Positions 178-35,862 of a stretch of 64,000 nucleotides of DNA are shown here, one piece after another. The translations under genes and the position numbers were made by a program. The first letter of the stretch is position 1. Every line of letters begins with the position of its first letter. The notes under the pieces were generated by a model, which saw nothing but the letters and a program-made list of their open reading frames with translations, was not told the origin of the DNA and did not search any database. The stretch comes from an uncultured Thermoplasmata archaeon (GTDB taxonomy: Archaea > Thermoplasmatota > DTKX01 > GCA-020343715), in NCBI GenBank assembly GCA_965369625.1, contig CBDUQW010000002.1, positions 27,708 to 91,707 of the forward strand, read 5' to 3'.

Positions 178-265
178 GGTTGGCTAATGCTATCAAAAGA
201 AGTCTGGGGGCTCCCCTCAGGAGCCCTTGAACAACAGTCCGGGAGCACTTGGAGGGTGTGAGGTC

Positions 266-11836: not shown

Positions 11837-12039
11837 GGTAGTCCCTCTTCTAACCTGGGTTCAGGCAGCCCTGACGTACCCCAGGTCCGTATAAATACTT
11901 TTTCGCATACTTCTCACGCGCGCGAAAAAAAGATATCGGCACTTTTGTTATCCTAGCCAAATAGATTCTGGAAAATCACATATTCTGATAAAAGCCCCTA
12001 AACCCATAACGCCTCCCATATCGCACTCTGGGTGGTAGG

Positions 12040-12063
12040 AAGTGCCGTCCCCTCGGGGGGACG
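12040..12063 (-). terminator. GC hairpin (7-bp stem) immediately downstream of the sepF stop. It is followed on the minus strand by oligo-T tracts at about 11985-11995 and 11925-11935. Likely an intrinsic terminator region.
   Basis: gtcccctcg-ggggga-cgaggggtc imperfect inverted repeat. T5-T7 runs on the minus strand follow it. Confidence 0.3.
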
Positions 12064-12070
12064 AGGGGTC

Positions 12071-12451
12071 TCAGTACGGTCCCCTGAGAACCTCTCTGTT
12101 GATGAACACGCCCGTCGGGGTGACGGCGAGGATGTTCTTGCCCACGCCGGCGACGTCGCCGTTGACGTCCCGGGCGACGGACTTGAGCTCGTTCGCGATA
12201 CGCCTCATCGCGGTGTCGTCGGTGGAGAGGGCCGAGATGTCCACGAGGATCATGTTACCATCGTAGACCTCTTCGATGACGGGGCCAAGGTCCTCGAAGG
12301 TGGTGACCTCCGCGACCCGCAGCTCCATGCCTCCGGCGCCGGATTCCAGCTCCAGGCCCTCGATGTCGATGTCCCCCAGGTCGATGAACTTCTCGCTTTC
12401 GGGAACAGGCCGTGGATCCGTCTTGAGCCGCTTGAGTAGACCCTTCTTCAT
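12071..12451 (-). CDS. sepF: Cell-division protein SepF (DUF552 family, FtsZ-interacting).
   Basis: 126 aa. C-terminal core ...NMILVDISALSTDD..RRIANEL...GKNILAVTPTGVFINRE matches the SepF fold signature (iLlNL...rriDfl.G...g.ifLltP..V). Confidence 0.7.
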   Translation of the reverse strand: MKKGLLKRLKTDPRPVPESEKFIDLGDIDIEGLELESGAGGMELRVAEVTTFEDLGPVIEEVYDGNMILVDISALSTDDTAMRRIANELKSVARDVNGDVAGVGKNILAVTPTGVFINREVLRGPY

Positions 12452-12604
12452 ACCCTACCCTCCGGGTGGTAAGCCTATAACCCATTCGGTGGTTATAAGG
12501 TTTAGGGGGAGCGCCTGGCGGGTCCGTGGCACGCCATCTGGTCCCCCTCCGCCGGTCAAGAGATATATACCCGTGGCCATATTGGGGGACTGGAGGATGA
12601 CCGG

Positions 12605-14245: not shown

Positions 14246-15235
14246 GTGGCCAAGAAATCAGCCCGCGCTGAGGCGAGGAAGGTAAAGGACCGCTGGAAGT
14301 CCAAGGTCTGGTACAACCTGTACGCCCCCGAGATATTCGGGGCGAGCCAGATCGGCGAGACCCTGGCGGACACCCCCGAGAAGCTGAACGGTCGCGTCAC
14401 CCAGATCACCCTTCAGGACATAACCGGTGACTTCTCGCAGATGCACGTCAAGCTGAACTTCCAGATCAACCGCGTGGTGGGACTGGACGCCCACACCGCC
14501 TTCGTCGGCCACGACCTGACCTCCGATTACATCCGCCGCCTGACGCGCAGGAAGCACTCCAAGATGGACGGCATCTACGATGTCACCACCCTCGACGGCT
14601 ACCGCGTGCGCATCAAGCCCATGGCCATCACCGAGCGGCGCATCAAGTCCTCCCAGCAGGAAGCCATCCGTGCCCAGATGATGCAGGTGGTCAACGACAG
14701 CGCCAGTCGCGCAACCCTCCCCGAGGTCATCAGGGCGATGATCTCCGGAGAGATGTCCAAGTCCATCTTCCGCAAGTGTAAGCCCATCTACCCCATCAAG
14801 CGGGTGGAGATCCGTCGCAGCCAGGTGATCGGTCGCGAGTTCGTCCCCGACGGCCCCGTCCGCGAGGGTGGCGACGGCTACGTGCTTGGAGGTCCCGAAC
14901 CAGAACCCGAGCCGGAAGGCGAGGAGGCTCCCGCCGAGGGCGAGGTACCCGTCGAGGCTCCCGCCGAGGAGACCCCTGCAGAGGAGGCTCCCGCGGAGGT
15001 TCCCGCCCCCGCCGAGTCGGAGGAGGAGTCCGAGGTGGACCCCGAGACGGTGGCCGCCATCATAGCCTCCTTCGGGGACATCCCGGGCATCGGCCCGTCC
15101 AAGGCCCAGGCCCTCTTCGACAGCGGTTACACCTCCGTCGAGGAGATCAAGGCCCTCTCCGCGGAGGACCTGGCCAAGGTCGAGGGCATCTCCGAGGCCC
15201 TGGCCAAGAGCGTCCACGAGGCCCTCAACGAGTAG
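14246..15235 (+). CDS. rps3ae: 30S ribosomal protein S3Ae (eS1) fused to a C-terminal acidic Pro/Glu/Ala-rich linker and a helix-hairpin-helix (HhH) domain.
   Basis: N-terminus MAKKSARAEARKVKDRWKSKVWYNLYAPEIFG... is the canonical S3Ae start. It is about 210 aa, followed by EPEPEPEGEEAPAEGEVPVEAPAEETPAEEAPAEVPAPAESEEESE and then IASFGDIPGIGPSKAQALFDSGYTSVEEIKALSAEDLAKVEGISEALAK (two GIG-type HhH motifs). Confidence 0.8.
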   Translation: MAKKSARAEARKVKDRWKSKVWYNLYAPEIFGASQIGETLADTPEKLNGRVTQITLQDITGDFSQMHVKLNFQINRVVGLDAHTAFVGHDLTSDYIRRLTRRKHSKMDGIYDVTTLDGYRVRIKPMAITERRIKSSQQEAIRAQMMQVVNDSASRATLPEVIRAMISGEMSKSIFRKCKPIYPIKRVEIRRSQVIGREFVPDGPVREGGDGYVLGGPEPEPEPEGEEAPAEGEVPVEAPAEETPAEEAPAEVPAPAESEEESEVDPETVAAIIASFGDIPGIGPSKAQALFDSGYTSVEEIKALSAEDLAKVEGISEALAKSVHEALNE

Positions 15236-15268: not shown

Positions 15269-16522
15269 TCAGATGAGCTTGCCCCAGGTGTGCTCGGTGT
15301 TGCACCGGGTCCATCCCAGGTCCTCGAGGTCGGTCACGTCGGAGCCCACCTTGAGCCGGAAGGTGTTGACCTGGGTCGGGTACTCGTTGTAGTGGAGGAT
15401 GGACCTGGCGATGCCGAAGCGCTTGGGCTGTTCGAAGCGCCAGTAGGCCCTGGAATACGCCTCCAGCTCCAGGTCGATGGTGGCCTCGGCGCTCTCGCCC
15501 CGGACGGTGAACACGGGGTAGTCCTCGTCGGTGAGGACGTGCTTGATCTTGGGCTTCTTGAACTTGTACAGCCGCTGGGCGGTCTCGTCCCAGAACTGCA
15601 GGCTGCGGTTGAGGAAGATGTCGCCGAAGTCCCATCGGCTCCTCGGCCGCTCGTCCTTCCGGTGCAGCTGGGGTCCGACGTGGGGGAAGAAGTAGTCCAG
15701 GTAGTCTCCCCTCTGGGTGTGCATCACCGTCCAGTACCAGGGTATGGCGGGGGCGTTGACGCGGACCTTCTGGAAGTACGCGGTGGAGCCCGCGGCGTCC
15801 ACCTCCTCTCCGTCCACCTTGTAGGTCCCCTCCACCTTCATCCCGTAGATGCGCAGGATGTTGTACGAGTACTTCTTGGAGTAGGCGTTGGCCCGGTAGC
15901 GGTGGTCGGACATGAAGGGGGTCCAGTCCGTCATGTCCAGGTGGAAGCCGTGGCCGTCCTCGGGCATGTCGATGTCGAGCCTGTACCTGCCGGGCCTTCC
16001 GGAGAACCGGAGGTCCTTGGGGGACTGGGGGTCCAAGAGGCCATCAGCGCCTCGCTTTTCGACCCTGAACCAGTTCGGCTCGAGGATGACGGGGTCCTTC
16101 ATCCTCCTTCCATCGTACCACCAGGCGGCGGTCATCCCGTTGAACTTGAGGTCGATGTCATCCCCCTCGGCCTTTCGCTCTATCTTTCCCTCGGGGGTCC
16201 AGTCAAAGTAGTCCACCTTTATCCAGTCGGTGTACTTGGTGGACCACAGGATCATCAGCTGCCGCGTCCGTCGCGGGTTGTCCGGGTCGGGGAAGAAGAA
16301 GAGCCACCACCACCACCACCAGGTGAGCCCCTGGTGGATGTTCGAGAGGTCCAGGTCCCACATCAGGGCCTCGGCCTCCGGGCCCAGGACCTCCTTGGCG
16401 TCGGTGGTGTGGCCCCTGGGCCTCTCCACAGTCTGGTGACCGACCGGCTCCTCCATCACGGGTGAATCCCCCGTTCGATACATAAAGGTGCCGTGGGGTC
16501 CCCACCCAGCAAGATGGTTCAC
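15269..16522 (-). CDS. Conserved hypothetical cytoplasmic protein, Trp/Tyr-rich, containing a hexa-Trp run. The start could be M1 (16522), M14 (16483) or M23 (16456).
   Basis: Coherent non-shadow composition over 417 aa. A TATA-like cttataaagg at 16548-16557 is appropriately placed upstream on the minus strand. Confidence 0.55.
   Translation of the reverse strand: MNHLAGWGPHGTFMYRTGDSPVMEEPVGHQTVERPRGHTTDAKEVLGPEAEALMWDLDLSNIHQGLTWWWWWWLFFFPDPDNPRRTRQLMILWSTKYTDWIKVDYFDWTPEGKIERKAEGDDIDLKFNGMTAAWWYDGRRMKDPVILEPNWFRVEKRGADGLLDPQSPKDLRFSGRPGRYRLDIDMPEDGHGFHLDMTDWTPFMSDHRYRANAYSKKYSYNILRIYGMKVEGTYKVDGEEVDAAGSTAYFQKVRVNAPAIPWYWTVMHTQRGDYLDYFFPHVGPQLHRKDERPRSRWDFGDIFLNRSLQFWDETAQRLYKFKKPKIKHVLTDEDYPVFTVRGESAEATIDLELEAYSRAYWRFEQPKRFGIARSILHYNEYPTQVNTFRLKVGSDVTDLEDLGWTRCNTEHTWGKLI
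16303..16320 (-). repeat. (TGG)6 trinucleotide repeat encoding WWWWWW. It is followed by CTC(TTC)3 encoding LFFF within the hypothetical gene.
   Basis: Plus strand reads ccaccaccaccaccacca immediately after gaagaagaagag. Confidence 0.85.
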
Positions 16523-16762
16523 CTTTTGCTAAACGAACCCGTCTCGCTTATAAAGGAAGAGGGCGGTCCTCTGTTACGGCAACAGCCGGAAATGTGGTGG
16601 CAAGAGGCGACATACAAATTTCCGATCCCTCCCTCAAAATTGGAAAATTTTTGGAACCATCCTCGGTTTCAATCCCCCCCCCTCCTGTCCCTCTTGCCCC
16701 CCGTTTCCTTTCTCATGTTCTGACACGTAGAGCGGGTACGTTCCACGTCCTCCCTGAGATCC

Positions 16763-19700
16763 TCATCGATGCTTCAGCATGTGCCCTATCAGGAAACCCA
16801 ACACGAGCAGTGCAAGGGCGGTCAAGAGCAGTATGATGATGACCTTGGCGTCCTCCGTGGGTCCCCAGACGGGCTGTGCCTCAGGTTTCCCCCTCACCAA
16901 TAGGTCCGTCTCCGAACGGGCGGAGGCGGTCCCGTCCGTAACGATGGCCGAGATCCGGTGCGCGCCCGCAGCAAGGTCGTTGACCGTGAACTCCACATCA
17001 CGGTCCGTCTCGATGGTGAGCAGGATGCCCGAGATGTTCGAGATGAGGGTGAGAGTCACCATCTCGCCGTAAATGAAGTCGGGGTCCTCGACGGAGATCC
17101 TGAAGGTCACCGGCGCCCCCTCGTCGAAGGCGCTACCGTCGCGAGGTGCCAGGAAAATCGGGGGCAGGGGTGGCTCCCCAATCTTCGTTACATGTACGGT
17201 GATGTCCTCCGATGCCGAACCCCCACGGCCGTCCGTTCCAGAAAGGGTGACATGGTGGGTGCCCAGGTCCCCCGCATCCGCTGAGAGCCTCAACGAACCG
17301 TTCCCAAGGAGGCTTGCGCCGTCCCAGTCCGACTCGATGGATAGATGGACCCGGTCCCCGTCCTTGTCAATGGTGAGGACATCGAGGACCAGCTCCTCTC
17401 CCACCTGCATCTCGATCTCTGCCGGGAGGTGGTAATCGCCGACGGCCAGTAGGTCCGGGTTGTGGTTCCTATCGATGACCCGTATGGGTAGGAGTCCCAC
17501 CGTGGTCTCGTACCCGTCCGATACCCTGAACTCGATCTGGTGGGGTTCCTCGTAACTTGGGTAGTACAGACGTATCATCAGGTCCGTGATGTACAATACC
17601 GCAGGGTCCCCGGAGCTCAGTTTGAGGTCGTGCTTGGCGTCGTCCACGTCGTAGATATAGGGACCCAGGTCCACTTCCTTCAACATCCTCACCGATATGT
17701 TGAACTGTGGGATCTCCATGATGCTCGGCGGTGAATTCAGGTGCGTGAACTTGAAGGGTTCCGACCATGGACCGCCACGTTTGGGTGGACGCGAATAGAG
17801 CGTCGCCACCCGCCAGTAGAGCTCACCCTTGCGGGTCCCCGAGACATTGGCGTAGGGATCTGGAACATCCGAGGTCAACGTGACGAGGTCGAAGTCAGGG
17901 TCGAGGGCCAGCTGGAACCTGTAGCCCCATACATCCCCGTTGGTGGTCGACCCGTGGACCGGCGACCATGTGAAAAGGGGAACGTCCTTGCTCTCGTGCC
18001 CGTTCCACGGGGTCTGCAGGGCGGTCATGCTCATGGGGACGTACCGGTGGGCGCGTCCCTTGGATGTCATCCTTCCCGTCCCCTCCCCGCCCGTTGGTCC
18101 CAGGGCGGCGGACCTCCAGCAGAACCCACCATCGCCTCCGGTGGCGCCCAGGTGATTGTTGGCGTGGATGACCGGCTCAATGACCACCAGGCGCATCGAG
18201 GCATCTCCTCCGTCTCCAACCCCCTGCTCGATGACACCGGTCCCGCCACCGTGGCTGATCCAGAGGCCATCCTCGATGATACATCCACCACCACCGCCGG
18301 AGTAGGAGCCGCCGCCCCCACCTCCCCTCCATTCGTTCCTAGCGGCCATCATGTGAGAGCGTCCAGCCCTTCCTCCGGGGCCACCTCCACCAGCGTGGAC
18401 GTTGACATCCACGAGGAAGAACGTTCCCTGGGTCGATGTAACCTCCAGTCGGGCATCTCCTCCCGAGGCCACGTCACCCTCCACCGTGCCACCAGACCCC
18501 CCGTTCACGGTGAGCGGGTCTGATGCGGACGGGATCCATCCTGCCCCTCCACCTCCGGAGTGCCCACCCCCTCCAGCTCCACTGGGACCTGTGGATGTCC
18601 CTCCATCACCTGCCCTGCCCCCTTGGCCCGCGGTCACGTTCAGGATGCCATCGGAAAGATGGACGGAATGCGACACGATGGTCGCGGTGGCGTCGCCCCC
18701 TGAACCCACGTGACCTTCGACCGTTCCTCCGTTTGCTCCCCCGTTCCGAGATTCATGACTGCCACCTCCGCCTCCCGAGTAACCTCCACCACCGGCACCG
18801 CCGAGACCCGCCGTGTCACCACCGTCGCCAGCATCACCACCGTCACCCGCCTGGATGGCCACCTCCGAGGCCTGCATGGAAACCTCGACCGCAAGGATGT
18901 ACAGGGTCGAATCGCCGCCGACGCCAACCCATCCCGAGACCTGTCCACCTGGACCCGCGGGATGCTCGGGGTCCGAGGCCCCCGTGCCTCCCGAGTAACC
19001 GCCACCTCCGGCGCCCAGGCCGGCGTTGGACTTCACGGAGCCACCGTCGCCCGCATCACCTCCGTCACCGCCCACGACATGGACCACAGAGCCCTGGACA
19101 TCGACCTTGTTCGTGGTCATACCGATGAAGGCGTCCCCTCCGGAACCAACCCTGTCCGAGACAGACCCACCCTGGGTATAACCCCCGCCGAGGACTTGGG
19201 CGGTGCCCTCGGAGGTCACGCCGTCGGGGGCGTCCCCTCCCACTCCCGCCTGGACGAGGACGGTGGAGTTCAATATGGCGAGGGAGGCGAAGTCCAGTGT
19301 GGTCTTCAGGACGAAGCGGGCATCGCCCCCGGCGTACCTACGACCGTCCAGGTCGTCGAGCGTCACCGGGATATCCGGGCCCATTCCATCGCCCGCCGAC
19401 AGGACCACGGACGCGTTCTCGATCAATATCTCCCGGCTGGCCCTCACGTTCATCTCCACGCTCACTCCCTGACCGTCCCAACGGTTCGAGCCGTCAGGTC
19501 CCTCGATGATGATCGAGGATCCATCGGTGACGCGCATGTGCCTGCACGTCCCGTTGATGCCGATGACCTCCCCTGCCGTCCAAGGAGAGATGACCAGGTC
19601 GCCCCCTGTGAGATCGACGGTGGCCAGTCCTTCCATGGTCATTTGGGATACCGACAGCGTCGTCCCCTCGGGTATCACCAGGTGACCAAAGGTCGTTATC

Positions 19701-19891
19701 TTGACGGAGCTCCACGACTCCGTCCCCGAGACGACGTACTCCTGGTTCACGTAGAGGCTGGCATCGGTGGTGGGAGGGCGATCGGCACCAAGGTCGGAGG
19801 GCGTCACGGGTGGGTCTATTAAGGGTACGACGGTCACCATGAGCATTGTGAGGGCCACGACGAGCGGGACCAAGGGGCACGGACGTTTCAT
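16763..19891 (-). CDS. Paralog B' of the giant Gly/Asp-repeat surface protein family (1042 aa). Domain order: signal peptide, beta-helix-like N-domain, about 370 aa of Gly-rich repeats, Fn3-like domain, Ig/cadherin-like domains, then a C-terminal TM anchor (VIIILLLTALALLVLGFLIGHMLKHR).
   Basis: ORF composition. N-terminal signal MKRPCPLVPLVVALTMLMVTVVPL. Repeats of the type AGDGGDAGDGG...GGAGGGGYSGGGGG...VGSGGDA. FTWSPVHGST...ELYWRVATLY is Fn3-like. The start ATG overlaps the stop of the upstream paralog (ATGA at 19888-19891). Confidence 0.8.
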   Translation of the reverse strand: MKRPCPLVPLVVALTMLMVTVVPLIDPPVTPSDLGADRPPTTDASLYVNQEYVVSGTESWSSVKITTFGHLVIPEGTTLSVSQMTMEGLATVDLTGGDLVISPWTAGEVIGINGTCRHMRVTDGSSIIIEGPDGSNRWDGQGVSVEMNVRASREILIENASVVLSAGDGMGPDIPVTLDDLDGRRYAGGDARFVLKTTLDFASLAILNSTVLVQAGVGGDAPDGVTSEGTAQVLGGGYTQGGSVSDRVGSGGDAFIGMTTNKVDVQGSVVHVVGGDGGDAGDGGSVKSNAGLGAGGGGYSGGTGASDPEHPAGPGGQVSGWVGVGGDSTLYILAVEVSMQASEVAIQAGDGGDAGDGGDTAGLGGAGGGGYSGGGGGSHESRNGGANGGTVEGHVGSGGDATATIVSHSVHLSDGILNVTAGQGGRAGDGGTSTGPSGAGGGGHSGGGGAGWIPSASDPLTVNGGSGGTVEGDVASGGDARLEVTSTQGTFFLVDVNVHAGGGGPGGRAGRSHMMAARNEWRGGGGGGSYSGGGGGCIIEDGLWISHGGGTGVIEQGVGDGGDASMRLVVIEPVIHANNHLGATGGDGGFCWRSAALGPTGGEGTGRMTSKGRAHRYVPMSMTALQTPWNGHESKDVPLFTWSPVHGSTTNGDVWGYRFQLALDPDFDLVTLTSDVPDPYANVSGTRKGELYWRVATLYSRPPKRGGPWSEPFKFTHLNSPPSIMEIPQFNISVRMLKEVDLGPYIYDVDDAKHDLKLSSGDPAVLYITDLMIRLYYPSYEEPHQIEFRVSDGYETTVGLLPIRVIDRNHNPDLLAVGDYHLPAEIEMQVGEELVLDVLTIDKDGDRVHLSIESDWDGASLLGNGSLRLSADAGDLGTHHVTLSGTDGRGGSASEDITVHVTKIGEPPLPPIFLAPRDGSAFDEGAPVTFRISVEDPDFIYGEMVTLTLISNISGILLTIETDRDVEFTVNDLAAGAHRISAIVTDGTASARSETDLLVRGKPEAQPVWGPTEDAKVIIILLLTALALLVLGFLIGHMLKHR

Positions 19892-22800
19892 CGCCTGACC
19901 TCCTCCAGATAGGGATCCTCGACCCCACTCGAGCCTGCCAGGTAACCTATCGTGACCACAATGATGAAGATGAAGGCGAACAACACATAGAGCCAGGTGT
20001 GGTCCTGCCCCGGCGGGGGCGATGATTCCTCCGCCTCATCCACCGTGAGATGGAGGGTGACGCTCTTCTCGTACGTCCCATCGTCGACGGTGATCACTAT
20101 CCTGTGGTCTCCCGGGGAGAGCCGGTCCGTGGCGAGGGATGCGAACGACTGGGTTGACGTTTGACCCAGCGTCCCCGATGTGTCCGACCAGAAGGTGACG
20201 TTGAGCCACGCTCCCGAAGGGATGTCCGGGTCCGATACCCTCACCGAGAAGACCACCAGATCCCCCTCCCTGAACACCGACCGGTCTGCAGGGCTGAAGA
20301 CCTCTGGCGGTTCCGGCGGTCGGTTCGACCTCACGACGACGATCCAGACGACCACTGAGGCGGTACCTCCCCTTCCATCATCCACGATGACCTTCAGTCT
20401 GTTCGAACCCAGGTCATAACTGTCAGGATGGAGCACGATGACCCCGGCGGGGGTGATCTCGACCCCTATCATGTCCGATGTGAGCGTGTATGTCAGGGGA
20501 TCGTCGTCCGGGTCGTCGGCCTCCACCTTCAACCACTCCTCCTCGAGCTCGGCCATCGTCCATTGATAGGGGGCCAGCCTCTCACCCACGCTCACTATCA
20601 CGGGTGCCTCGTTCGCGTCGATCACCTCGACGATGACATGCCCCATAGTGGTGCTGACCCCGTCGGACACGCTATAGTGGACACGGTGGGGCGCCTCCCA
20701 CCATTCGTAGTAGAATATGACGAACAGTCCCGTGATCGATTCCACCCCGGGATGGTCGATCTCGACCACCAAATCGTCTATGAAGGTGTCCCTGTCGTGA
20801 AAGTAGTATCCCAAGTAGATGGATTTGGGCTGGTCCTCTATCACCGTCACAGTAGGGTAGTCATCGATCTCCGGTGGCTCGTTGTAGAACCTGAAGGAAC
20901 TGAACCTGACCTCTGGCCCATTGACCTGCGGGGGGCCTCTGTAGACCGCGATGACCTTCCAGTAGTACGTCCCCATCTGCAGGTCAGGGATGGAAAGGTC
21001 CGGTCTGACGGACGTGGTCTCCGTCACGATTTCGGTGAACGGGATGTCACGGGCCATCTTGAACAGGTAGTGGACCACATCACCGTCCTCCGTGGACCTG
21101 TGGACGGGCATCCACTCGAAGCTGGGCACGAAGTGTAGTTCCAACCTGTCCCCAGGGCTCCAGAGGATGACCTCGCTCTTGGGGATGTACTCCCACCTCG
21201 TTCCGTCCCTGGTGCTCCGCACCCGGGCTTTTCCCTGGGGGTCCTCGAGGTTGAGCGAGCGAGTGGAGCCACAATCTCCCCAGAGCACGTAGATCATGGT
21301 GTTCCTATGCAAGGAAAGCCTCTCGCTCTGGATGTCCAGCGAGGCGTTGCCGCCATCCCCCACCTTCCCGAGGACGTCCGATGCACTACCGCCTGAACCG
21401 TAGGTCTGACCCTCATGGCCTGCACCACCTCCCCCGCCGGAGGAGTGGCCACCGGCCCCACCACCACAGGCCGGTCGCTGGTTCTCATCGATCCTCGCGT
21501 TCCCATAGCCTCCCTCGTCACCTCCCGACCCTCCCACGACGTTGAACACGGAGGTCGTCGAGACGAGACGGGGTGACTCCAGGAGGAGACTTGCATCGCC
21601 ACCGCTCCCCACCGACCCTCTCAGAGCGCCTCCTGCGCCACCGTCGGTGCCAGGCGTTCCCCCGGATGAGTTCCCGTCGGCGCCACCACCCCCTCCGGTG
21701 TAACCACCGCCTCCTCCTCCTGCGAGGGCACCCGCATCGCCACCATCACCGCCTTCACCCCCGTTCCCTGCAGTGGCCAGGACCCTTGACGTTCCTATAT
21801 CCATGGTGTCTGCGCCCGTCAAGGTGGCGCTGACATCCCCGCCCCTCCCCACAGACCCCGTGACCGTGCCACCGTCGCCACCGGGCATGAGCCCGTGATT
21901 GCCACCTCCGCCGCCCGAGTAGCCGCCGCCGCCGGCCCCGCCACCTCCATCCGTGAGCGAGCCTCCGTCGCCAGCATCTCCACCGTCGCCTCCCAGCATC
22001 TCGATGCGGGCGCCTTCCAGTTCCACCCATCCCCCTACGAGGTTGAAACTCACGTCACCTCCCTTGCCCACGCCTTCTGACACGGAACCCCCTGGGCCCG
22101 GGGGGTCCTGGGCGTTGGAGGCGCTGGCACCGTCCCCACCGGAGTAGCCCCCGCCACCGCATCCGGCGTCGGTCGTCCACTTGGTGCTCCCCCCGTCACC
22201 AGCGTCCCCGCCGTTCCCAGCCGTCATGTTCAACGTGGTGTCCGTGATCATGATGTGGTCGGAAGAAAGGACGCCGTCCACGTCGCCTCCCGAGCCCACG
22301 TTGCCAGATACGTCGCCGCCCCGGGTGTAGCCACCACCAATCCCCCCACGGTCACCATCCCCTCCGCGAATAGGGGATTGGCCATCGGGAGCCCGGCCGC
22401 CGTTCCCCGCGGTCAGGGCGATCTTGCAGTTGGAGAGGATGAGCATGTCGTTGTCCTTCACGAGGGTAACGCTCATCGTTACATCCCCTCCCGCGAAGGA
22501 GTATCCGTCCAGGTCCCCATCGGTCAATGACTCCGGGGGAGAGAACCCATTCCCCGCGGTCAAGGAGATGGTGGAATCCATCCACATCATCGTTCGGGTG
22601 GAGGTGAGGTTCAGACCCACCGAGCAGCCCCTGCTGGTGGGGACGTCGTACCCTCCGTCGGGACCCCGGATGTTCACCAGGCTGCCCTTGGTGATTTCGA
22701 ACCAGCTGCAATGCCCCGAGATCCCCACGAACTCCCTGTACGTTCGGGGTTCGATCTCGAGCACACCCCCCTGCAGGTGCATCTGGGCGTTGTCGAGGAG

Positions 22801-23046
22801 GGTGACGCTGTCGGCCACCAGGTGACCGCCATCGCCGATGATGAGCGAGCCCGTGGACTCCACCACCACATTGGACCACACCTCGTAGTGGTCCACGGAG
22901 CAGTTCGAGTCGATGACCATGGTTTCACCAGAACGGGTCCCCGGCGAGGCCGATACCAAGGAGGGATGGTCCACCTCCAGCATCCCCAGCGGACAGGCTA
23001 GGAGGAACATCGAGACAACAAGCGCAAACGAAACCCCCGCGCGCAT
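19888..23046 (-). CDS. Paralog A' of the giant Gly/Asp-repeat surface protein family (about 1052 aa from ATG 23046).
   Basis: The 6-frame ORF extends to 23115, but the signal peptide MRAGVSFALVVSMFLLACPLG begins at ATG 23044-23046. Same architecture as above. The Fn3-like segment (MGTYYWKVIAVYRGPPQVNGPE) groups it with the 26326..29478 paralog. A TATA-like attattat at about 23066-23078 sits in the 113-nt gap upstream. Confidence 0.8.
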   Translation of the reverse strand: MRAGVSFALVVSMFLLACPLGMLEVDHPSLVSASPGTRSGETMVIDSNCSVDHYEVWSNVVVESTGSLIIGDGGHLVADSVTLLDNAQMHLQGGVLEIEPRTYREFVGISGHCSWFEITKGSLVNIRGPDGGYDVPTSRGCSVGLNLTSTRTMMWMDSTISLTAGNGFSPPESLTDGDLDGYSFAGGDVTMSVTLVKDNDMLILSNCKIALTAGNGGRAPDGQSPIRGGDGDRGGIGGGYTRGGDVSGNVGSGGDVDGVLSSDHIMITDTTLNMTAGNGGDAGDGGSTKWTTDAGCGGGGYSGGDGASASNAQDPPGPGGSVSEGVGKGGDVSFNLVGGWVELEGARIEMLGGDGGDAGDGGSLTDGGGGAGGGGYSGGGGGNHGLMPGGDGGTVTGSVGRGGDVSATLTGADTMDIGTSRVLATAGNGGEGGDGGDAGALAGGGGGGYTGGGGGADGNSSGGTPGTDGGAGGALRGSVGSGGDASLLLESPRLVSTTSVFNVVGGSGGDEGGYGNARIDENQRPACGGGAGGHSSGGGGGAGHEGQTYGSGGSASDVLGKVGDGGNASLDIQSERLSLHRNTMIYVLWGDCGSTRSLNLEDPQGKARVRSTRDGTRWEYIPKSEVILWSPGDRLELHFVPSFEWMPVHRSTEDGDVVHYLFKMARDIPFTEIVTETTSVRPDLSIPDLQMGTYYWKVIAVYRGPPQVNGPEVRFSSFRFYNEPPEIDDYPTVTVIEDQPKSIYLGYYFHDRDTFIDDLVVEIDHPGVESITGLFVIFYYEWWEAPHRVHYSVSDGVSTTMGHVIVEVIDANEAPVIVSVGERLAPYQWTMAELEEEWLKVEADDPDDDPLTYTLTSDMIGVEITPAGVIVLHPDSYDLGSNRLKVIVDDGRGGTASVVVWIVVVRSNRPPEPPEVFSPADRSVFREGDLVVFSVRVSDPDIPSGAWLNVTFWSDTSGTLGQTSTQSFASLATDRLSPGDHRIVITVDDGTYEKSVTLHLTVDEAEESSPPPGQDHTWLYVLFAFIFIIVVTIGYLAGSSGVEDPYLEEVRR

Positions 23047-23159
23047 GGGAACTACTAAGGACGCATGCTGATAATAATCCCATCGATGCGTGACACCCGC
23101 GTCGTCCGAGGCCAAGGTCCAGGACCGACGAGGGAAAGGATGGGGTCATAATCCCAGGC

Positions 23160-26100
23160 TCACTCCGTAGGCCTTCCCCTCCGTGTTTGCCACCGTCCTG
23201 CACCGTAGGCCACCGCGAAGAGGGCGATGGTTGCCATCAGGTAGAGGGTGGGGTCCACCTCCTCGGTCTGGGGAAGGACCACGTTGGAGGGCTCTGGTGG
23301 CCCCTCCACCGTCAGGATGAACCAGGTGTTCGACGAGTAGCGGCCATCGGTGGCGACCACGCTGATCCTGTGGTTGCCAGGTTGTAGCCCGGAGTGGCTG
23401 AAGGATGCCACCCCGTCGGTCTCGATGGTCTTGAGGACCCCCGAGGAGTTGGAGATGAACGACACGTTGAGCCGCTGACCGAACCGGACGTCGTCATCCT
23501 CGACGGACACCACGAACCGGACCAGGGTCCCAAGGGGGACCGTGGTCCCGTTGTCCGGGCTGATGACCACCGGGACACGGGGCGGGTCGTTCACGTTCGT
23601 CACGACCACCGTGATCTCCATCTCGGCGGTCTGGCCCTCCTCGTCCGTCACCGTCAGGATGGCCTTGAAGGTGTCCACCTCCCCCTTGCCGGCCGCCACC
23701 TGGAGGGTCCCGTTCTCGTGGGCGATCACCCCCGGCCACCCGTAGGTGCTGTAGTTGAACTCGTCGCTGTCCACGTCGTGGACGAGGATGTCGTACCACT
23801 CCGAGGTCCCCTCCTCGATGGTGAGCCTTGTGGGAGGACGTATCCCCTCGAGCCCCCTGATGTAGGGCGGGTGCATGTGCCTGAGCGCCTGGACGGCGAA
23901 CTCCCCGTACACCCTGCTCAACCCGTCGGTCACCGAGAACCGCACCACGTGACCCGTGTCCTCCTCCCCGAAGTAGACGCTCAGGTTCAGATCGGATATC
24001 CTGAACAGGTGAGGGTCATGGCATTCGAGCACCAGACGGTCATCGTCGTCGTCGGGGTCGTCGATGTAGGGCGCGAGGTCGATCCTCGTCACCGTCTCGA
24101 TCTGGACCGTCATCAGCGGGATATCCCCGATCACGGGTGGCAGGTTCACGTACTCGAAGACGCGAGGTTCGGACCAGATCCCCCTGGGGTTCGGAGGGTT
24201 GGCGTAGCGTGGGGCCACCCTCCAGTAGAAGGTGAAGTTGGGCACCCAGATGGCATCGTAGCTCTCGGTCGGGACGATGACCGTCCACTCCGGGCTGGAG
24301 AAGTCCGGGTCGTCGTCGACCGTGAGCTCGTGCCCCACAACGGCCCCGCCGTCGGAAGAGGGATGGATGGGAGCCCATGTGAATTTCGGAAGGCTTGAGT
24401 CGATGGTGCCGTCCTCGGGGAGGATCGGAACTCCCCTGCTCCTCGGGATATATACCTCCGTCATACCGTTGGAGGTCAAACGGCCCTCTCCCCTCCCGGA
24501 CAGCGGTCCGAGCTCGGGGGAGACCAGGCACGGACCTTTCTTACCACGGGTCGCCCCAAAGAGGTTATCGAGGAGGACCGTGGCATTCTCAGGCTCGAGA
24601 AGGAGGGATGCGTCCCCGCCGTCCCCTACGGTCCCGAGGGCACCACCGCTCCTGCCGCCTGTGCCCCCGGATCCCGTCCGACCCGTGCTGCCGGCACCTC
24701 CCCCTCCCGAGTAGGAGCCACCACCTCCACCTGCCATCTCGTTCTCGATGTCACCGATCCACAGGCTCCTGCCATGGACCCCTCCCCGTCCCCCGTCACC
24801 TCCACCGACCGAGAAGCCCCATCCGTGGAGGCGTGCATCCTCCGCTGCAAGCTTGACCTTTGCGTCCCCGCCCATTCCCACCTCGTGGGTGACGGGTCCA
24901 CCGTCCCCCCCGTTCGTGCCACGGTCCAGGGTCAGGTTTCCTGCCATGCGGCCCGCTGCACCTCCGCCGCCGCCCGAGTAGCCGCCGCCGCCAGCGCCGC
25001 CCATCGGCAACGGAAGGGGAGCCCGGACCACGGACCCACCATCGCCAGCATCACCGCCGTTGCCACCAAGGGCCTGGACCAGTGAGGACCCGGTCCTCAG
25101 CTCGCCGGAGAGGCCGTACCTGATGGAGGCATCACCGCCATGTCCCACTGCGAAACCGACACGTCCGCCTTCCGCCCCATCGGCGGACGCGGAGCTTCCA
25201 CCGCCGCCACCGGAGTACCCGCCTCCTCCTCCACCTCCCTCGCCGGTGGAGCTGCCGCCGTCGCCCGCGTCGCCGCCTCTCCCACCATGGACCTGGATGT
25301 CCGTGCCCACCTGAGAGCAGTTCCCTCCCGACACGCGTAGGGTGGCGTCACCTCCAGCCCCGACGCGGCCCGTGACATCTCCGCCTGGCGTCGCCTGGAG
25401 GGCGCCAGCGTCCGCTCCGGGGCCGCCGGAGTAACCTCCACCTCCACCTCCCGCGGTGACGTCAGGACCCACCGAGGCCCCGTCACCCGCATCGCCGCCG
25501 TCACCACCGCTGATGTTGATGGATGTGCCGTCCAGCACGATAGAGCGAGCTGAAAGATGGACCCTGCTGGTTCCCCCGGTGGCGACATCACCCGTTACCT
25601 GACCGCCTTCGGTGAACCCACCTCCCCTGCCTCCGGTCGCGCTGTGGGCCGCCGTCCCGTTGGGGGCGTCCCCACCGTCACCTCCTTTGACGTCGATGCG
25701 GGAGTCGATGATCTTGAGGGAGGTTCCCGAGGAGCCCACGGTCAGGGAGATAGAGGCGGGGCCACCCGCCGATACCTCGCCTTCCAGGTCACCGTCGGTG
25801 TACGGCCTGCTGGGGGAATGACCAGCACCTCCCGTCAACCAGATGAGGGAGCCCTCTATCTGGATCCTCACGCTGGCGGTGAGATCGATGGAGGTGCTCT
25901 CTCCATGGCTGCCCTCGATAGTCCCGTTACCGGCCCCACCGATGGCCGAGATGATCGAGCCTGGCGACATCGTCAGCTCGCGACACCCCCCTGAAAGGCT
26001 CCTCGGACCGCGGTCGAAGGACCCGCCCAATATCAGGGACCCCCCCCTGATCTCCAGCACGCCCCTGAGGGAGACGCTTCCGGCGAAGAGGGTCGAGTTC

Positions 26101-26336
26101 GCCTCGATCACGAGCCTCCCGTCCCTCCCGACCTGGATCTGGTCCCAGGACTCCGAACCGGTCACCGTGTAGGTCTCGTCGACCACCAGCACATCCCCGG
26201 AACGATGGGTGCCCTCTCCGGCGACGTCCATCGTCGCCATCGGGAGCATGAGGGCCAGGACCACCAGGAGATTGACCAGGACCGGCACCGCCGAGGACCG
26301 CGGGTACGGGCCCCACGGACCGAGCCTAATCGGCAT
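23160..26336 (-). CDS. Paralog B of the giant Gly/Asp-repeat surface protein family (1058 aa). Most similar to 16763..19891.
   Basis: Signal peptide ...SAVPVLVNLLVVLALMLPMATM, Gly-rich repeats, FTWAPIHPSS...FYWRVAPRYANPPNPRGIWSEPRVF (compare P1 ELYWRVATLYSRPPKRGGPWSEPFKF), C-terminal TM LYLMATIALFAVAYGAG. The start overlaps the 3' end of the upstream gene by 11 nt. Confidence 0.8.
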   Translation of the reverse strand: MPIRLGPWGPYPRSSAVPVLVNLLVVLALMLPMATMDVAGEGTHRSGDVLVVDETYTVTGSESWDQIQVGRDGRLVIEANSTLFAGSVSLRGVLEIRGGSLILGGSFDRGPRSLSGGCRELTMSPGSIISAIGGAGNGTIEGSHGESTSIDLTASVRIQIEGSLIWLTGGAGHSPSRPYTDGDLEGEVSAGGPASISLTVGSSGTSLKIIDSRIDVKGGDGGDAPNGTAAHSATGGRGGGFTEGGQVTGDVATGGTSRVHLSARSIVLDGTSINISGGDGGDAGDGASVGPDVTAGGGGGGYSGGPGADAGALQATPGGDVTGRVGAGGDATLRVSGGNCSQVGTDIQVHGGRGGDAGDGGSSTGEGGGGGGGYSGGGGGSSASADGAEGGRVGFAVGHGGDASIRYGLSGELRTGSSLVQALGGNGGDAGDGGSVVRAPLPLPMGGAGGGGYSGGGGGAAGRMAGNLTLDRGTNGGDGGPVTHEVGMGGDAKVKLAAEDARLHGWGFSVGGGDGGRGGVHGRSLWIGDIENEMAGGGGGSYSGGGGAGSTGRTGSGGTGGRSGGALGTVGDGGDASLLLEPENATVLLDNLFGATRGKKGPCLVSPELGPLSGRGEGRLTSNGMTEVYIPRSRGVPILPEDGTIDSSLPKFTWAPIHPSSDGGAVVGHELTVDDDPDFSSPEWTVIVPTESYDAIWVPNFTFYWRVAPRYANPPNPRGIWSEPRVFEYVNLPPVIGDIPLMTVQIETVTRIDLAPYIDDPDDDDDRLVLECHDPHLFRISDLNLSVYFGEEDTGHVVRFSVTDGLSRVYGEFAVQALRHMHPPYIRGLEGIRPPTRLTIEEGTSEWYDILVHDVDSDEFNYSTYGWPGVIAHENGTLQVAAGKGEVDTFKAILTVTDEEGQTAEMEITVVVTNVNDPPRVPVVISPDNGTTVPLGTLVRFVVSVEDDDVRFGQRLNVSFISNSSGVLKTIETDGVASFSHSGLQPGNHRISVVATDGRYSSNTWFILTVEGPPEPSNVVLPQTEEVDPTLYLMATIALFAVAYGAGRWQTRRGRPTE

Positions 26337-29300
26337 GGTCCACCCCCTTCCTTCCCAGGTAGTAGCCGAGGAGCGGCATGGCGATGAGCAGGACGATGAT
26401 GTAGGGAGGGATCTCCTCGGCGACCCTCTCCTCCGGCTCGTGCTCGATCTCCCGCTCCTTGACCCTGATGTCGAGGTACGTCTCCTTCTTGTACGTCCCG
26501 TCCCACACGGTGATGGTTATCCTGTGGTGACCCACCGGGAGGTCGTTGATATGGAAACTGGCGATGTCCGTTGTCTTGATGGACATCAGCTGGCCTGTGA
26601 CGTTGGAGGTCCAGGTCACCCACAGCTCCTCGCCCCAGACCAGGTCCGGGTCGTTCACCTTCACGGTGAAGGGGATGCTGTCCAGCTCCTTGTGGACCGA
26701 CCTGTTCCAGGGGGAGTACACCTCTATGGGTCCGGGTGGGTCGCACACGTTGTTGACGAGGATGGTGATCTCGGCGACGGTGATGGCCCGTCTCTTGTCC
26801 TCCACCTCGAGGCGCGCGTGGAACTGGCCGAACCTCTCCTGCCTCGTCGTGACGCGGATGCTCCCGTTGGAGAACAGCCTGATGCCCCTCCAGCTGGAGT
26901 AGAGCGACATGGTCATGTCATCGCCATCGGGGTCGAGCAGTTCGATCTCGAACCACCTCACCGTCCCCTCGTCCACCTGGAGGGTGACGGGAGGGGGAAG
27001 GCCGCCGATGGACACCACCTCGGGGGGTTCGTTGACGTCCCACACGACGACGGGGAGCTTGAACAGCTTGCTGGTATAACCGTCGGAGAGGCTGAACTTG
27101 ACCCACCGGATGTCGCTGGGCTCGTCGAAATAGAGGGTCATGGTCAGGTTCTCGATGTTCCGAACGGCCGGGTCGCCGGTGGTCATCGTGAGGTTCTCGA
27201 GCTCGGTGTCGACGTCGGTGATGAAGGGAGCAAGGTCCACGACGGTCTCGGTCATCTCGTTGATGTAGAGGGGCTCGAACATGTGGAAGGTCGGGGGCGC
27301 GTTGTCGAACCCGAAGTTGTTGATGATGGATTCCGGCCCCAAGTGCCCCGGGGGCTCGGAGTAGATGGCCCTCACCCTGACGTAGTACGAACCAAAGGAC
27401 AGGCCCGTGACCTCCGCCCAAGGGTCCGTGGTCGTGATAGAGAATTCGACGCGGTCGAACGTCGGGTAGTCATCGACCTCGACCAAGTACGCGGAAATGG
27501 GACCATGGAGGGTGGAATCGTGTACGTCGACCCATCTGCATACGGGGAGCGAGTAGGTAAGCGTGCCATGCTGTGGCCATGTGATCAGCGGTCTGCTCAT
27601 CGGGATGTGGAGGACGGTGGACCCGTACTGTCCACTGCGGTGGGCCGAATCGCCGCACAGCGGGTCATAGGGCGGCTCAACACCATCCGACCCGGGTTCA
27701 CCAGGATGGGCGAAGAGGCTCGAGCTCCTGGTGATGGTGGGCAATGGGCTGTAGCAGATGACGCTGGCGTCACCACCATCGCCGATGTGACCCACCAGGT
27801 CACCACTGGAACCGGGGTTCCCGTATGCAGTGCCGGTGGTTTCCGTGCCCGCTCCCCCTCCGCCGGAGTATCCTGCGCCTCCACCGCCGCCCTTGGGCCC
27901 ATCGTCGGTACCCTCCTTGCCCTCGCCGGCGTCACCCTGGTCGCCTCCATGACCGGCGAACGCTGAAAGGTTGCAATCGAAGACCAGGGCGTAGTAAGAG
28001 ACGAGGACCACGGTCGCGTCACCTCCCGCCCCCAGGTTGCGCTTGACATCGCCCCCGTCACCACCATCGGACCCGGACCCATCGGTTCCCGCCGTACCCT
28101 GACGGCCTCCGCCTCCGCCACTATATCCGCCACCCCCGCCTCCTGCAGGACCCAGGGCATCGCCGCCATCGCCCGCGCTGCCGCCAGCGCCACCCGTCGA
28201 GGACAGGTAACTGGCGTTCAGGAGGACCGAGGACCACAGGGTGATGTTGATCAGGGCGTCGCCCCCGGAGCCAACGTCGCCGTGGACGTTCCCTCCGTCC
28301 CCGCCGGGGGACGAGATGGTGCCTCCACCGCCTCCAGTGTACCCTCCGCCGCCACCCCCTGCGTTGGAGGCGCTGGTCGCGCCGTCACCGGCATCGCCGC
28401 CCTTGCCTCCGGTGACATCGATGGTGGTCCTCGAGATGGTCGCGACCATGCCACGGACCAGGGCCGTTGCGTCGCCGCCGGTGCCCACCTCCCCCGACAC
28501 GTTGCCGCCGTTCCCGGCCGCGTTGGATGGGTGGTACCTCGTACCCCCATCGCCGCCGGAGTAGCCGCCGCCACCGCTTCCGTAGAAGTTCTGGGAGGGA
28601 TCGATGTCCCCGCCATCGCCCGCGTCCCCCGCCTTGCCGCCGACCAGCTCCACGAGGGTGTCCATCACGGTCAATGACCGGGCCCGCAGTACGAGTTCGG
28701 CGTCTCCGCCACTGCCCACGGTGCCCGACACGTCACCGCCCCTGGTGTAGCCCCCACCGCGACCTGCGGTCTCGGGAGCCATCGGCGGCTGCCCGTCCGG
28801 TGCCTTGCCGCCGTCGCCCCCCTTGACCCTGATGGAGGACGACTTGATCTCAAGGACCGGGTCGTAGGCGGTGACGTTGATGGACATCTCGGCGTCGCCT
28901 CCCGCGAAGGCGTCACCACCCAGGTCCCCGACGGTCATGGGATAGCCGGGCGAGAGGCCGTTCCCGCCGGTTATCTCGACCGTGGAACCCTTTACCCTCG
29001 CCGAGATGTACACGACCACGTCGATACGTGCCTTCCCGCCCCTGCTGTGGGGGACGTCATAGACGCCATCCGTCCCCGAGATGGTCACCCGGGACCCTCC
29101 GAGCAAGTCGAACCGGTTGCACTCGCCGAAGATCCCGACCTCGGAGGCGTAGGACCGGTCCGAGATGGCGAGGGTGGCCCTGCGCACCTCCAACGAGGAG
29201 GAGCCCTCGAGGTGGATAGAGCGGGTCTCCAGGACGGCACCGTTCATCACGAGGAGCCGCGCGCCGGAGCGGACGGTGACGTCCCTCCATACCTCGTGTC

Positions 29301-29478
29301 CCGTGACCTTGTAGGTGCCATCCACGTAGAGGGTGGCGTCGGGGTCGCCCCCGATCCCCTGGGCCTCGACGGCGACATCTTCGAGCAATATTTGTAACGA
29401 TGAGAGAAGGAACAGGAGAAGAATCAACACTACTGGAATGCAAACCCCCTTTCGCATCAAGGTTACTAGGCCCCACAT
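26326..29478 (-). CDS. Paralog A of the giant Gly/Asp-repeat surface protein family (1050 aa). First gene of the four-gene array.
   Basis: Signal peptide MWGLVTLMRKGVCIPVVLILLLFLLSSLQ (an alternative start is M8 at 29457). Gly-rich repeats (GGDAGDGG, GGGGYSGGDGG, VGSGGDA). SYYVRVRAIYSEPPGHLGPE is Fn3-like. C-terminal TM IIVLLIAMPLLGYYLG. Confidence 0.8.
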   Translation of the reverse strand: MWGLVTLMRKGVCIPVVLILLLFLLSSLQILLEDVAVEAQGIGGDPDATLYVDGTYKVTGHEVWRDVTVRSGARLLVMNGAVLETRSIHLEGSSSLEVRRATLAISDRSYASEVGIFGECNRFDLLGGSRVTISGTDGVYDVPHSRGGKARIDVVVYISARVKGSTVEITGGNGLSPGYPMTVGDLGGDAFAGGDAEMSINVTAYDPVLEIKSSSIRVKGGDGGKAPDGQPPMAPETAGRGGGYTRGGDVSGTVGSGGDAELVLRARSLTVMDTLVELVGGKAGDAGDGGDIDPSQNFYGSGGGGYSGGDGGTRYHPSNAAGNGGNVSGEVGTGGDATALVRGMVATISRTTIDVTGGKGGDAGDGATSASNAGGGGGGYTGGGGGTISSPGGDGGNVHGDVGSGGDALINITLWSSVLLNASYLSSTGGAGGSAGDGGDALGPAGGGGGGYSGGGGGRQGTAGTDGSGSDGGDGGDVKRNLGAGGDATVVLVSYYALVFDCNLSAFAGHGGDQGDAGEGKEGTDDGPKGGGGGAGYSGGGGAGTETTGTAYGNPGSSGDLVGHIGDGGDASVICYSPLPTITRSSSLFAHPGEPGSDGVEPPYDPLCGDSAHRSGQYGSTVLHIPMSRPLITWPQHGTLTYSLPVCRWVDVHDSTLHGPISAYLVEVDDYPTFDRVEFSITTTDPWAEVTGLSFGSYYVRVRAIYSEPPGHLGPESIINNFGFDNAPPTFHMFEPLYINEMTETVVDLAPFITDVDTELENLTMTTGDPAVRNIENLTMTLYFDEPSDIRWVKFSLSDGYTSKLFKLPVVVWDVNEPPEVVSIGGLPPPVTLQVDEGTVRWFEIELLDPDGDDMTMSLYSSWRGIRLFSNGSIRVTTRQERFGQFHARLEVEDKRRAITVAEITILVNNVCDPPGPIEVYSPWNRSVHKELDSIPFTVKVNDPDLVWGEELWVTWTSNVTGQLMSIKTTDIASFHINDLPVGHHRITITVWDGTYKKETYLDIRVKEREIEHEPEERVAEEIPPYIIVLLIAMPLLGYYLGRKGVDHAD

Positions 29479-35672: not shown

Positions 35673-35862
35673 GGAGACCCGACCACCTGGTTCAACCTCA
35701 CTCCTTGCATCCATTCCTGCCTGGCCCATATATACAGTCTTGTACGGTTCTTTATCGTTCCCATACGGGGTATGGGGTCCTGGCACTCGCTCACGTGGTG
35801 CCATGTGCGACCGTACGCCTTAAGGGTTGCGACGTGGTTTTCCTCGGGGCGAACCCAGTTAT

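Follow-up and report, generated by a model that had tools for sequence, protein, structure and literature searches.

A rare family of beta-helix surface proteins encoded by a duplicated gene pair in an uncultured Thermoplasmata archaeon

For uncultured sediment Thermoplasmata, an array of four genes in the genome of one such archaeon provides a concrete and conserved candidate for the outer surface. The DNA analyzed is a stretch of 64,000 nt with a G+C content of ∼65% (the window), in which four consecutive minus-strand genes, designated g1 to g4 in order from 26326–29478 down to 16763–19891, form a duplicated two-gene cassette (A-B-A′-B′). It is well supported that their products are paralogous type-I membrane proteins at the cell surface, in which a beta-helix head stands on an immunoglobulin (Ig)/cadherin-like stalk. 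We favor, with moderate confidence, a combined reading in which the genes constitute two bicistronic units that arose by duplication of the cassette in place and in which the A and B products would associate into hetero-oligomers that form a surface coat or adhesin. As a family the proteins are new, rare and unannotated, but they belong to a known kind of archaeal surface protein rather than to a new kind of system, and current understanding is not overturned by them, as paralogous surface proteins that combine a beta-helix, Ig-like domains and a transmembrane (TM) anchor are a familiar archaeal theme.

The first gene, g1 (26326–29478; A type), is an open reading frame (ORF) of 1050 amino acids (aa) whose probable true start is the ATG at 29457 (M8), while g2 (23160–26336; B type) encodes 1058 aa, g3 (19888–23046; A′ type) 1052 aa from the ATG at 23046, and g4 (16763–19891; B′ type) 1042 aa, all on the minus strand. 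A first-pass annotation, made by a model from the letters and their ORFs, had described four consecutive genes of one common architecture, and the ORFs and their translations agree with this; the reading frames are uninterrupted, with no internal stop in any of the four translations, and all four of the peptides that it quoted are found verbatim. The overlaps that it reported within each pair (11 nt between the end of g1 and the start of g2, and ATGA at the g3 stop and g4 start) and the gap of 113 nt between g2 and g3, with a TATA-like box, are likewise read in the sequence. The ORF of g3 can be extended mechanically to a TTG at 23115, but the extension is probably untranslated, and the N-terminus MRAGVS… is kept in relatives. 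A tblastn search of the window recovers the four genes and no fifth copy. The numerous ORFs read from the opposite strand, such as 26209–27966 (585 aa), are shadow frames of the kind usually seen opposite coding DNA of high GC. In one related metagenome-assembled genome (MAG), L004, g1 (10001–13070) is split into ORFs of 915 and 135 aa, with the C-terminal part of the first out of frame; in that MAG, either the gene is a pseudogene or a sequencing error has shifted its frame.

The A/B pairing is invisible in the window, where all six pairwise identities of the four proteins fall between 34.6 and 36.5% and the top pair is g1-g2, and it becomes evident once orthologs are added. With the sequences of seven genomes, each of the four positions, that of g2 included, forms a clade with 100% neighbor-joining (NJ) bootstrap support, and the split (g1,g3)|(g2,g4) is recovered at 100% overall. 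By region, the support for this split is 98% in the N-terminal part, 92% in the Gly repeats and 95% in the Fn3-like domain, and only 20% in the three C-terminal Ig domains. When eight outgroup sequences are included, the groups A (g1,g3) and B (g2,g4) each receive 100% and the other pairings 0%, while the array is monophyletic at 93.5%, the outgroups, among them a single-copy gene from the same genomic slot, falling outside. Measures that do not depend on the tree point the same way. The mean identities between ortholog groups are 0.361 for g1-g3 and 0.348 for g2-g4 compared with 0.321–0.343 for the other pairs, the hhalign scores of the group profiles are 1710 and 1646 compared with 1396–1462, six gap-pattern columns favor the 13|24 pairing and none favors either alternative, and diagnostic residues number 4–5 for this pairing vs. 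1–2 and 0 for the alternatives. Hence the proposal of the first-pass annotation that gene 1 resembles gene 3 and gene 2 resembles gene 4 is confirmed by the tree, the profile comparison and the indels, while the alignment of the four window proteins by itself gives equal divergence.

The duplication of the pair as one cassette is attested by the tree, the profile scores, the indels, the likeness of the g1 and g3 upstream sequences, and a relative from which the promoter is missing together with g1 and g2. The array slot holds one gene in one genome (L009), two in another (L011) and four in seven, including the window. The L009 gene encodes a single homolog of 1239 aa (P0049; 8829–12548) that lies outside the A+B clade and is apparently the pre-duplication state. 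L011 is a contig of a cold-seep MAG (JAUVEQ010000007.1, CSMAG_327) that keeps only g3-g4. It is colinear with L001 at 90% nucleotide identity up to a point upstream of g1 and then resumes at the g3 promoter, such that exactly 6.4 kb, consisting of the promoter, g1 and g2, is absent (L011 8081–8101 vs. L001 9858–16294), and the junction lies inside sequence that is alike upstream of g1 and g3 (ATCGCCAATCGATGGGATTATAAAC vs. GTCGGCAATCATAGTTGTTATTAAAG). As g1/g2 and g3/g4 have no long shared DNA identity, an artefact of metagenome assembly at this place is unlikely. More distant members of the family (P0057 and P0074) are single genes at other genomic places. The simplest history therefore runs from one gene to a tandem A-B pair and then, by block duplication of promoter, A and B, to A-B-A′-B′, with one later loss of a cassette. 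The duplication is older than the split of genomes whose orthologs are 38–76% identical, and recent gene conversion between the paralogs is ruled out since no long near-identical DNA tracts were found among the four genes. This series of one, two and four genes in one slot is unusually clean. In it, a promoter and a gene pair are duplicated and deleted as a unit, and it usefully illustrates one way in which surface proteins may pass from a homomeric to a heteromeric state.

The signals around the genes define the same two units. Upstream of g1, a TATA box, TTATAAA (29487–29481, minus strand), ends two bases before the annotated g1 ATG and is centered 27 nt upstream of the ATG at 29457. The spacing between the archaeal TATA box and the start follows an established rule, and the position of this box argues for a g1 start at M8 (MRKGVCIPVV…) on a leaderless mRNA. 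The arrangement of ATTATAAA, CCTAGTAAG and ATG recurs upstream of g1 in L004 and L005. In the 113-nt gap, the TATA-like box of the g3-g4 unit, ATTATTAT (23071–23078, minus strand), is centered 28 nt upstream of the ATG at 23046, and ATTATAAA or TATAATTA stands at the matching place upstream of g3 in L001 and L004 and also at the L011 junction. Judged by these positions, both boxes would be promoters in use and g1 and g3 are probably leaderless. No TATA box was found upstream of g2 or g4. Instead, a Shine-Dalgarno (SD)-like motif, GGGGGTGG (26340–26347, minus strand), is located 3 nt upstream of the g2 ATG within the last codons of g1 and is kept in L001 and L003–L006, and a second, GGAGGAGGT (19898–19906, minus strand), is located 6 nt upstream of the g4 ATG within the end of g3. 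The motif inside the end of g1 suggests translational coupling of g1 and g2, and the stop/start overlaps with SD-like motifs, present in every array genome examined, together with the lack of a TATA box before g2 and g4, point to two bicistronic units, each with coupled translation. A T-rich stretch, AAAAATTTTCCAATTTTG (16631–16660, minus strand), lies about 100 nt past the g4 stop and is a possible archaeal oligo-T terminator of the array.

All four proteins share a layout of a signal peptide, a beta-helix head of ∼575 aa, an Fn3-like domain, three cadherin/Big_9-like domains and a C-terminal TM helix. In g1, the head covers residues 50–623 (27610–29331, minus strand), the stalk residues 626–1007 (26458–27603, minus strand) and the TM helix residues 1026–1049 (26332–26403, minus strand). 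The first-pass annotation had read a signal peptide, a beta-helix-like N-domain, Gly/Asp repeats, Fn3-like and Ig-like domains and a C-terminal TM anchor from the sequence, and this order is reproduced by an AlphaFold2 model of the g1 product (G1) built with a 58-sequence alignment. The model of the whole protein (predicted local distance difference test, pLDDT, 87.9) has at its N-terminus a hydrophobic helix (residues 13–34) and a disordered linker, then a beta-rich head to about residue 620, four beta-sandwich domains (621–1007) and the C-terminal TM helix (1026–1049). Modeled alone (residues 43–620), the head reaches a pLDDT of 94.6 and a predicted template modeling score of 0.92, and it matches solved beta-helices structurally, which places it among the right-handed parallel beta-helices of the pectate-lyase-like class. 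Its second half is composed of five Gly/Asp-rich super-repeats of ∼72 aa each (64–83 residues; in G1, 193–256, 257–333, 334–404, 405–484, and 485–567) with the consensus GGDA, a long strand, a short strand, GGxGGDAGDGG, GGGGGYSGGGGG and GGxVxGxVGxGGDA, and the Gly content of the head is ∼30%. The A-type N-termini, M-[RTN]-K-G-V in g1 (29457–29440) and M-R-A-G-V-S in g3 (23046–23029), are conserved across genomes and loosely resemble the charged-Gly/Ala start of class III (pilin-type) signal peptides, while the B types do not. Such peptides usually have a [KR]-[GA]-hydrophobic run, which the g1 and g3 N-termini do not appear to fit, and these were not assigned to the class.

The stalk domains of the G1 model match the ectodomains of C-cadherin and desmocollin in Foldseek, and sequence matches of the Ig type in Pfam and NCBIfam (Big_9, Big_7, PKD, tandem-95), weak to moderate in strength, are confined to residues 830–1005. 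The Big_9 scores (PF17963, gathering score 23.6 bits) exceed the cut-off in g3 (28.9 bits) and g4 (32.3 bits), whereas g1 (16.1 bits) and g2 (18.5 bits) remain under it, although the homologous domains align throughout. Three stalk residues are invariant (D849, D943, and D945), and motifs of the VxNVNDPP type and DPDGD lie near the predicted ends of the stalk domains or inside those domains. By analogy with cadherins and Big_9 (Cadherin_5) domains, these Asp motifs probably bind Ca2+. The proteins are acidic (isoelectric points 4.3–4.6) and carry 6–14 N-X-S/T sequons each. For the head, on the other hand, there is no model in Pfam (E ≤ 1), including Beta_helix (PF13229), or in NCBIfam that matches any of the four proteins, and phmmer against PDB sequences gave only chance matches of low complexity. 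The locus defines a head-domain family for which neither Pfam nor NCBIfam has a model. With G1 as the query, 142 homologs were found, none with a name beyond “hypothetical,” and where a source is named, as it is for a few, it is a Thermoplasmata or Thermoplasmatota MAG. The family is rare, since a profile of the head alone retrieved 108 of 1.84 billion representative proteins at E ≤ 1e-3. Two of the GTDB representatives that carry the genes are MAGs labeled “Methanobacteriota archaeon CSMAG_327” and “CSMAG_707,” from the cold-seep catalog (PMC10491686). Contigs were searched with a profile of the g3 stalk alignment alone, while the full-length alignment selected poly-Gly patterns and found nothing. 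A Thermoplasmatales protein of 1127 aa (L015) matched through an Ig domain only and was not counted as a family member, and literature searches turned up nothing specific on these proteins or on a Gly-rich archaeal beta-solenoid.

The closest known architecture is that of the archaeal adhesin-like proteins (ALPs), which are defined by one or more right-handed beta-helix (RBH) domains, Ig-like (ABD) repeats and a TM-helix anchor, a combination common among them (PMC11532034), and which occur in Methanobrevibacter and Methanosphaera and have been reported in Methanomassiliicoccales too (PMC11532034; PMC7883539). The array proteins have all of these elements, with the right-handed beta-helix on the N-terminal side, Ig-like (Big) repeats, a single TM anchor and several paralogs at the surface, and the likeness established here is one of architecture. 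They differ in being anchored at the C-terminus after a cleavable N-terminal signal, while most ALPs have an N-terminal TM helix, in heads that match neither Pfam Beta_helix nor any other family model and carry the ∼72-aa Gly/Asp super-repeat, and in the fixed, syntenic A-B-A′-B′ operon pair as opposed to dispersed paralogs. The resemblance of the heads to two-partner secretion (TPS) and autotransporter adhesins is one of fold and probable role and not of family membership, and identity to HMW1, EtpA, HxuA, FHA, pertactin, Vag8 and Ag43 is only 10–14%. The proteins are not TPS exoproteins (TpsA), as the NPN[LG] motif is absent from all four and there is no Haemagg_act match in Pfam, and no gene for a TpsB (Omp85-type) partner is adjacent, either in the window or in any relative; the neighbors are AFOR, ferredoxin, a CARDB-wHTH (winged helix-turn-helix) protein, a 417-aa protein of no known family and S3Ae. 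Nor are they autotransporters, since the C-terminus is a single predicted TM helix with a short tail and no beta-barrel, and Pfam gives no autotransporter match. Their host, unlike those of both secretion systems, is an archaeon without an outer membrane, and they are TM-anchored. Chlamydial Pmps are also tandem paralogous beta-helix surface adhesins, with short Gly-containing repeats and reported homo- and hetero-oligomers. The array proteins share with them the tandem paralogous arrangement, but Pmps are autotransporters of an organism that differs in kind and in anchoring, the GGA[ILV]/FxxN motifs of Pmps give 0–2 chance matches per array protein and no arrays, and TIGR01376 has no match in NCBIfam searches. 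Two further classes were rejected. Archaeosortase substrates of the PGF-CTERM type do not fit, as PGF is absent from the 40 C-terminal residues of all four proteins and NCBIfam gives no match, and neither do RTX beta-rolls, as tandem GGxGxDxUx nonapeptides are absent, an isolated GGxGGD occurs once per ∼72-aa repeat, and there is no HemolysinCabind match.

In the mechanism that we propose, each protein would be exported by its cleavable N-terminal signal and held by its one C-terminal TM helix and short tail, with the stalk raising a membrane-distal beta-helix head. The pairs g1-g2 and g3-g4 would each be expressed as a bicistronic unit, from a TATA box ∼27 nt before a leaderless first gene and with a coupled second gene. 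The array itself arose in place, as a single ancestral gene was duplicated to A-B and promoter, A and B were then duplicated as one block, and the four resulting ortholog groups have been kept distinct since. The A and B subunits would be made in equal amounts and assemble side by side into hetero-oligomers, and these would make up an outer coat or an adhesive layer, acidic, glycosylated and stiffened by Ca2+, from which the beta-helix tips point outward. In Sulfolobus, the SlaA/SlaB operon is a two-gene precedent for co-assembling envelope subunits. A two-subunit complex of A and B, as the first-pass annotation had suggested, is plausible because translation appears to be coupled and four distinct clades have been retained for so long. 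The identities within the window carry no A/B signal, the equal divergence that the first-pass annotation had named as telling against its pairing, but the orthologs resolve this question. That each protein is complete on its own and that relatives carry one or two copies speaks against an obligate complex.

This last point is also where the strongest competing view begins, namely that the proteins are independent, non-interacting adhesins or receptor-binding proteins that diverged by subfunctionalization toward different ligands and that the pair layout is only a trace of duplication. Every protein has its own signal, head, stalk and anchor, relatives manage with one or two copies and the distant members are single genes, and the best structural matches of the head are the beta-helices of monomeric bacterial adhesins (HMW1, EtpA, HxuA, and FHA). 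The fixed gene order, the stop/start overlaps with SD-like motifs in all array genomes and the four deep clades are more typical of paralogs that co-assemble. Independence we regard as doubtful but deserving of real weight. The favored coat or adhesin can, conversely, be carried further, to a hetero-tetramer of A, B, A′ and B′ that tiles the surface as the principal envelope and is remodeled against viruses, at the level of the population, by gain and loss of cassettes and by swapping of heads. This extension we consider unlikely; were it true, a Gly-rich super-repeat beta-helix not described before would underlie the envelope of a Thermoplasmata lineage.

A related proposal, that the four paralogous protomers form a true two-dimensional crystalline S-layer that is the main cell-wall lattice of the lineage, we regard as quite improbable. 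The array proteins resemble archaeal S-layer glycoproteins such as Haloferax volcanii csg (PMC8640222) in being acidic, sequon-rich and hence N-glycosylatable type-I membrane proteins with Ig-rich stalks and a C-terminal tether, and bacterial S-layers with beta-helix lattice domains and long stalks are known (bioRxiv 10.1101/2024.05.28.596244). The array lies, moreover, in a conserved housekeeping neighborhood (S3Ae, a SepRS-like gene, and SepF) and not in an island. But known archaeal S-layers use one or two proteins, csg and SlaA/SlaB lack a beta-helix head, whereas the array subunits are all homologous and each has its own anchor, one relative (L011) has lost half of the array, and several other large surface proteins of the window are equally good candidates. 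Thermoplasma itself has no S-layer (bioRxiv 10.1101/2024.05.28.596244), and bacterial S-layers built on beta-helices exist, so that an envelope role for the array proteins is possible but unproven. That they are surface-anchored enzymes that degrade or modify polysaccharides is very improbable: lyases, hydrolases and epimerases are common among right-handed beta-helix proteins, but the invariant head positions among 58–64 family members are nearly all Gly, which argues for a constraint of packing or structure rather than for a catalytic site.

Selection and variation on the array were assessed by comparing the window with a close strain, L010 (GCA_030666405.1, DAOUXX010000008.1). All four genes are under purifying selection, as dN/dS (the ratio of nonsynonymous to synonymous substitution rates) indicates: it is ∼0.37 per whole gene and 0.12–0.61 in head and stalk segments, and values above 1 occur nowhere but in the signal and TM segments of g1, which are short and have diverged very little. 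Divergence is distributed very unevenly along the array. Nucleotide identity is 96–99.7% in the AFOR/ferredoxin flank and 94–98% in the stalks, but 69–87% in part of the g1 head (29005–27806), 64–73% over the whole g2 head (26305–24512) and 77–82% in the g2-g3 gap and the start of g3. Correspondingly, dS is 0.47–0.92 in the Gly-repeat parts of the heads and 0.20–0.79 in the N-terminal helix, compared with 0.04–0.07 in the g1 Fn3/Ig and g2 Ig segments and 0.27 in g2 Fn3, while dN/dS in the heads is ∼0.3–0.4. High dS combined with such ratios argues for the recombinational import of old divergent alleles and not for accelerated protein evolution, and indicates at least two separate replacements, of the g1 head and of the g2 head, between the two strains. 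In a third strain (P0032) the g2 head is different again, and the contrast between head and stalk is repeated for g2 between L003 and L006. The divergent heads of L010 remain within the g1 and g2 ortholog clades and are thus not conversions from paralogs. Variation thus exists as swapping of heads by recombination between close strains, the flanking genes of the two compared here being 97–99% identical, and this is well supported. Across orthologs, the membrane-distal N-cap is less conserved in the B types (0.36–0.37) than in the A types (0.50–0.54). The B-type tips evolve fastest and whole heads pass between strains, as expected for an exposed face that is targeted by viruses or binds ligands, and since near-identical strains are mosaic in their heads specifically, contact with viruses or ligands is likely to be made by the beta-helix tips.

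These data bear on the suggestion of the first-pass annotation that the pair was duplicated for antigenic variation, with the cassettes as alternative or donor copies in an antigenic or phase-variation device, which is hardly credible and largely refuted by phylogeny. The heads are mosaic between close strains and tandem paralogs could in principle donate sequence, but the duplicates are ancient (∼35% identity), kept in order and each orthologously conserved under purifying selection, there are no near-identical tracts between paralogs, the L010 heads stay in their own clades, all four copies have expression signals and none is silent, and neither invertible elements nor recombinase genes were seen in the vicinity.

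The array is conserved gene for gene in L001/L002, L003, L004, L005, L006 and L007/L008, that is, in six further distinct genomes or seven with the window. Its common neighborhood runs from the CARDB-wHTH membrane protein through AFOR and ferredoxin (on the other strand) and g1-g4 to an uncharacterized protein of ∼400 aa and S3Ae, and beyond S3Ae to a SepRS-like synthetase, SepF and a large pilin-like protein. In the window, the first of these (31899–35804, minus strand) is a membrane protein of 1301 aa with NPCBM_assoc/CARDB Ig-like ectodomains and two C-terminal cytoplasmic winged-helix domains, HTH_HVO_0163_N followed by HTH_24/MarR, and it looks like a membrane-tethered one-component regulator. 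In those relatives with a contig long enough to cover it, the gene lies upstream of the array beyond AFOR/ferredoxin, and it is present at L009 too. Downstream, 15269–16522 (minus strand) encodes a Trp-rich protein of 417 aa with a WWWWWW run and no Pfam match or obvious signal peptide, preceded by its own TATA-like box, TTTATAA, near 16553–16547, and a gene for 374–442 aa that also lacks Pfam matches trails the array, or the single gene of L009, at several related loci. The SepRS-like gene (12605–14140, plus strand) encodes a class II aminoacyl-tRNA synthetase with a tRNA_bind_4 N-domain and adjoins S3Ae (14246–15235), which is what places the array in a housekeeping neighborhood and not in a genomic island. 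No tRNA genes were found in the window. Giant surface proteins are unusually numerous there. One of 1081 aa (46527–49772, minus strand) has an analogous layout but an unrelated sequence, with a signal, Pfam Beta_helix, Big_13, three Glucodextran_B domains, a C-terminal TM helix and a Pro/Glu-rich tail, another of 1090 aa (8564–11836, minus strand) has an archaeal type IV pilin N-terminus (Pilin_N), and a third of 1732 aa (227–5425, plus strand) combines CARDB, a predicted TM segment, double zinc ribbons and a very acidic tail. A protein of 836 aa (40248–42758, plus strand), in which the subtilase motifs HGTHVAGT and SGTSMSTPH were recognized by eye ahead of a C-terminal TM segment, is probably a surface-anchored S8 protease.

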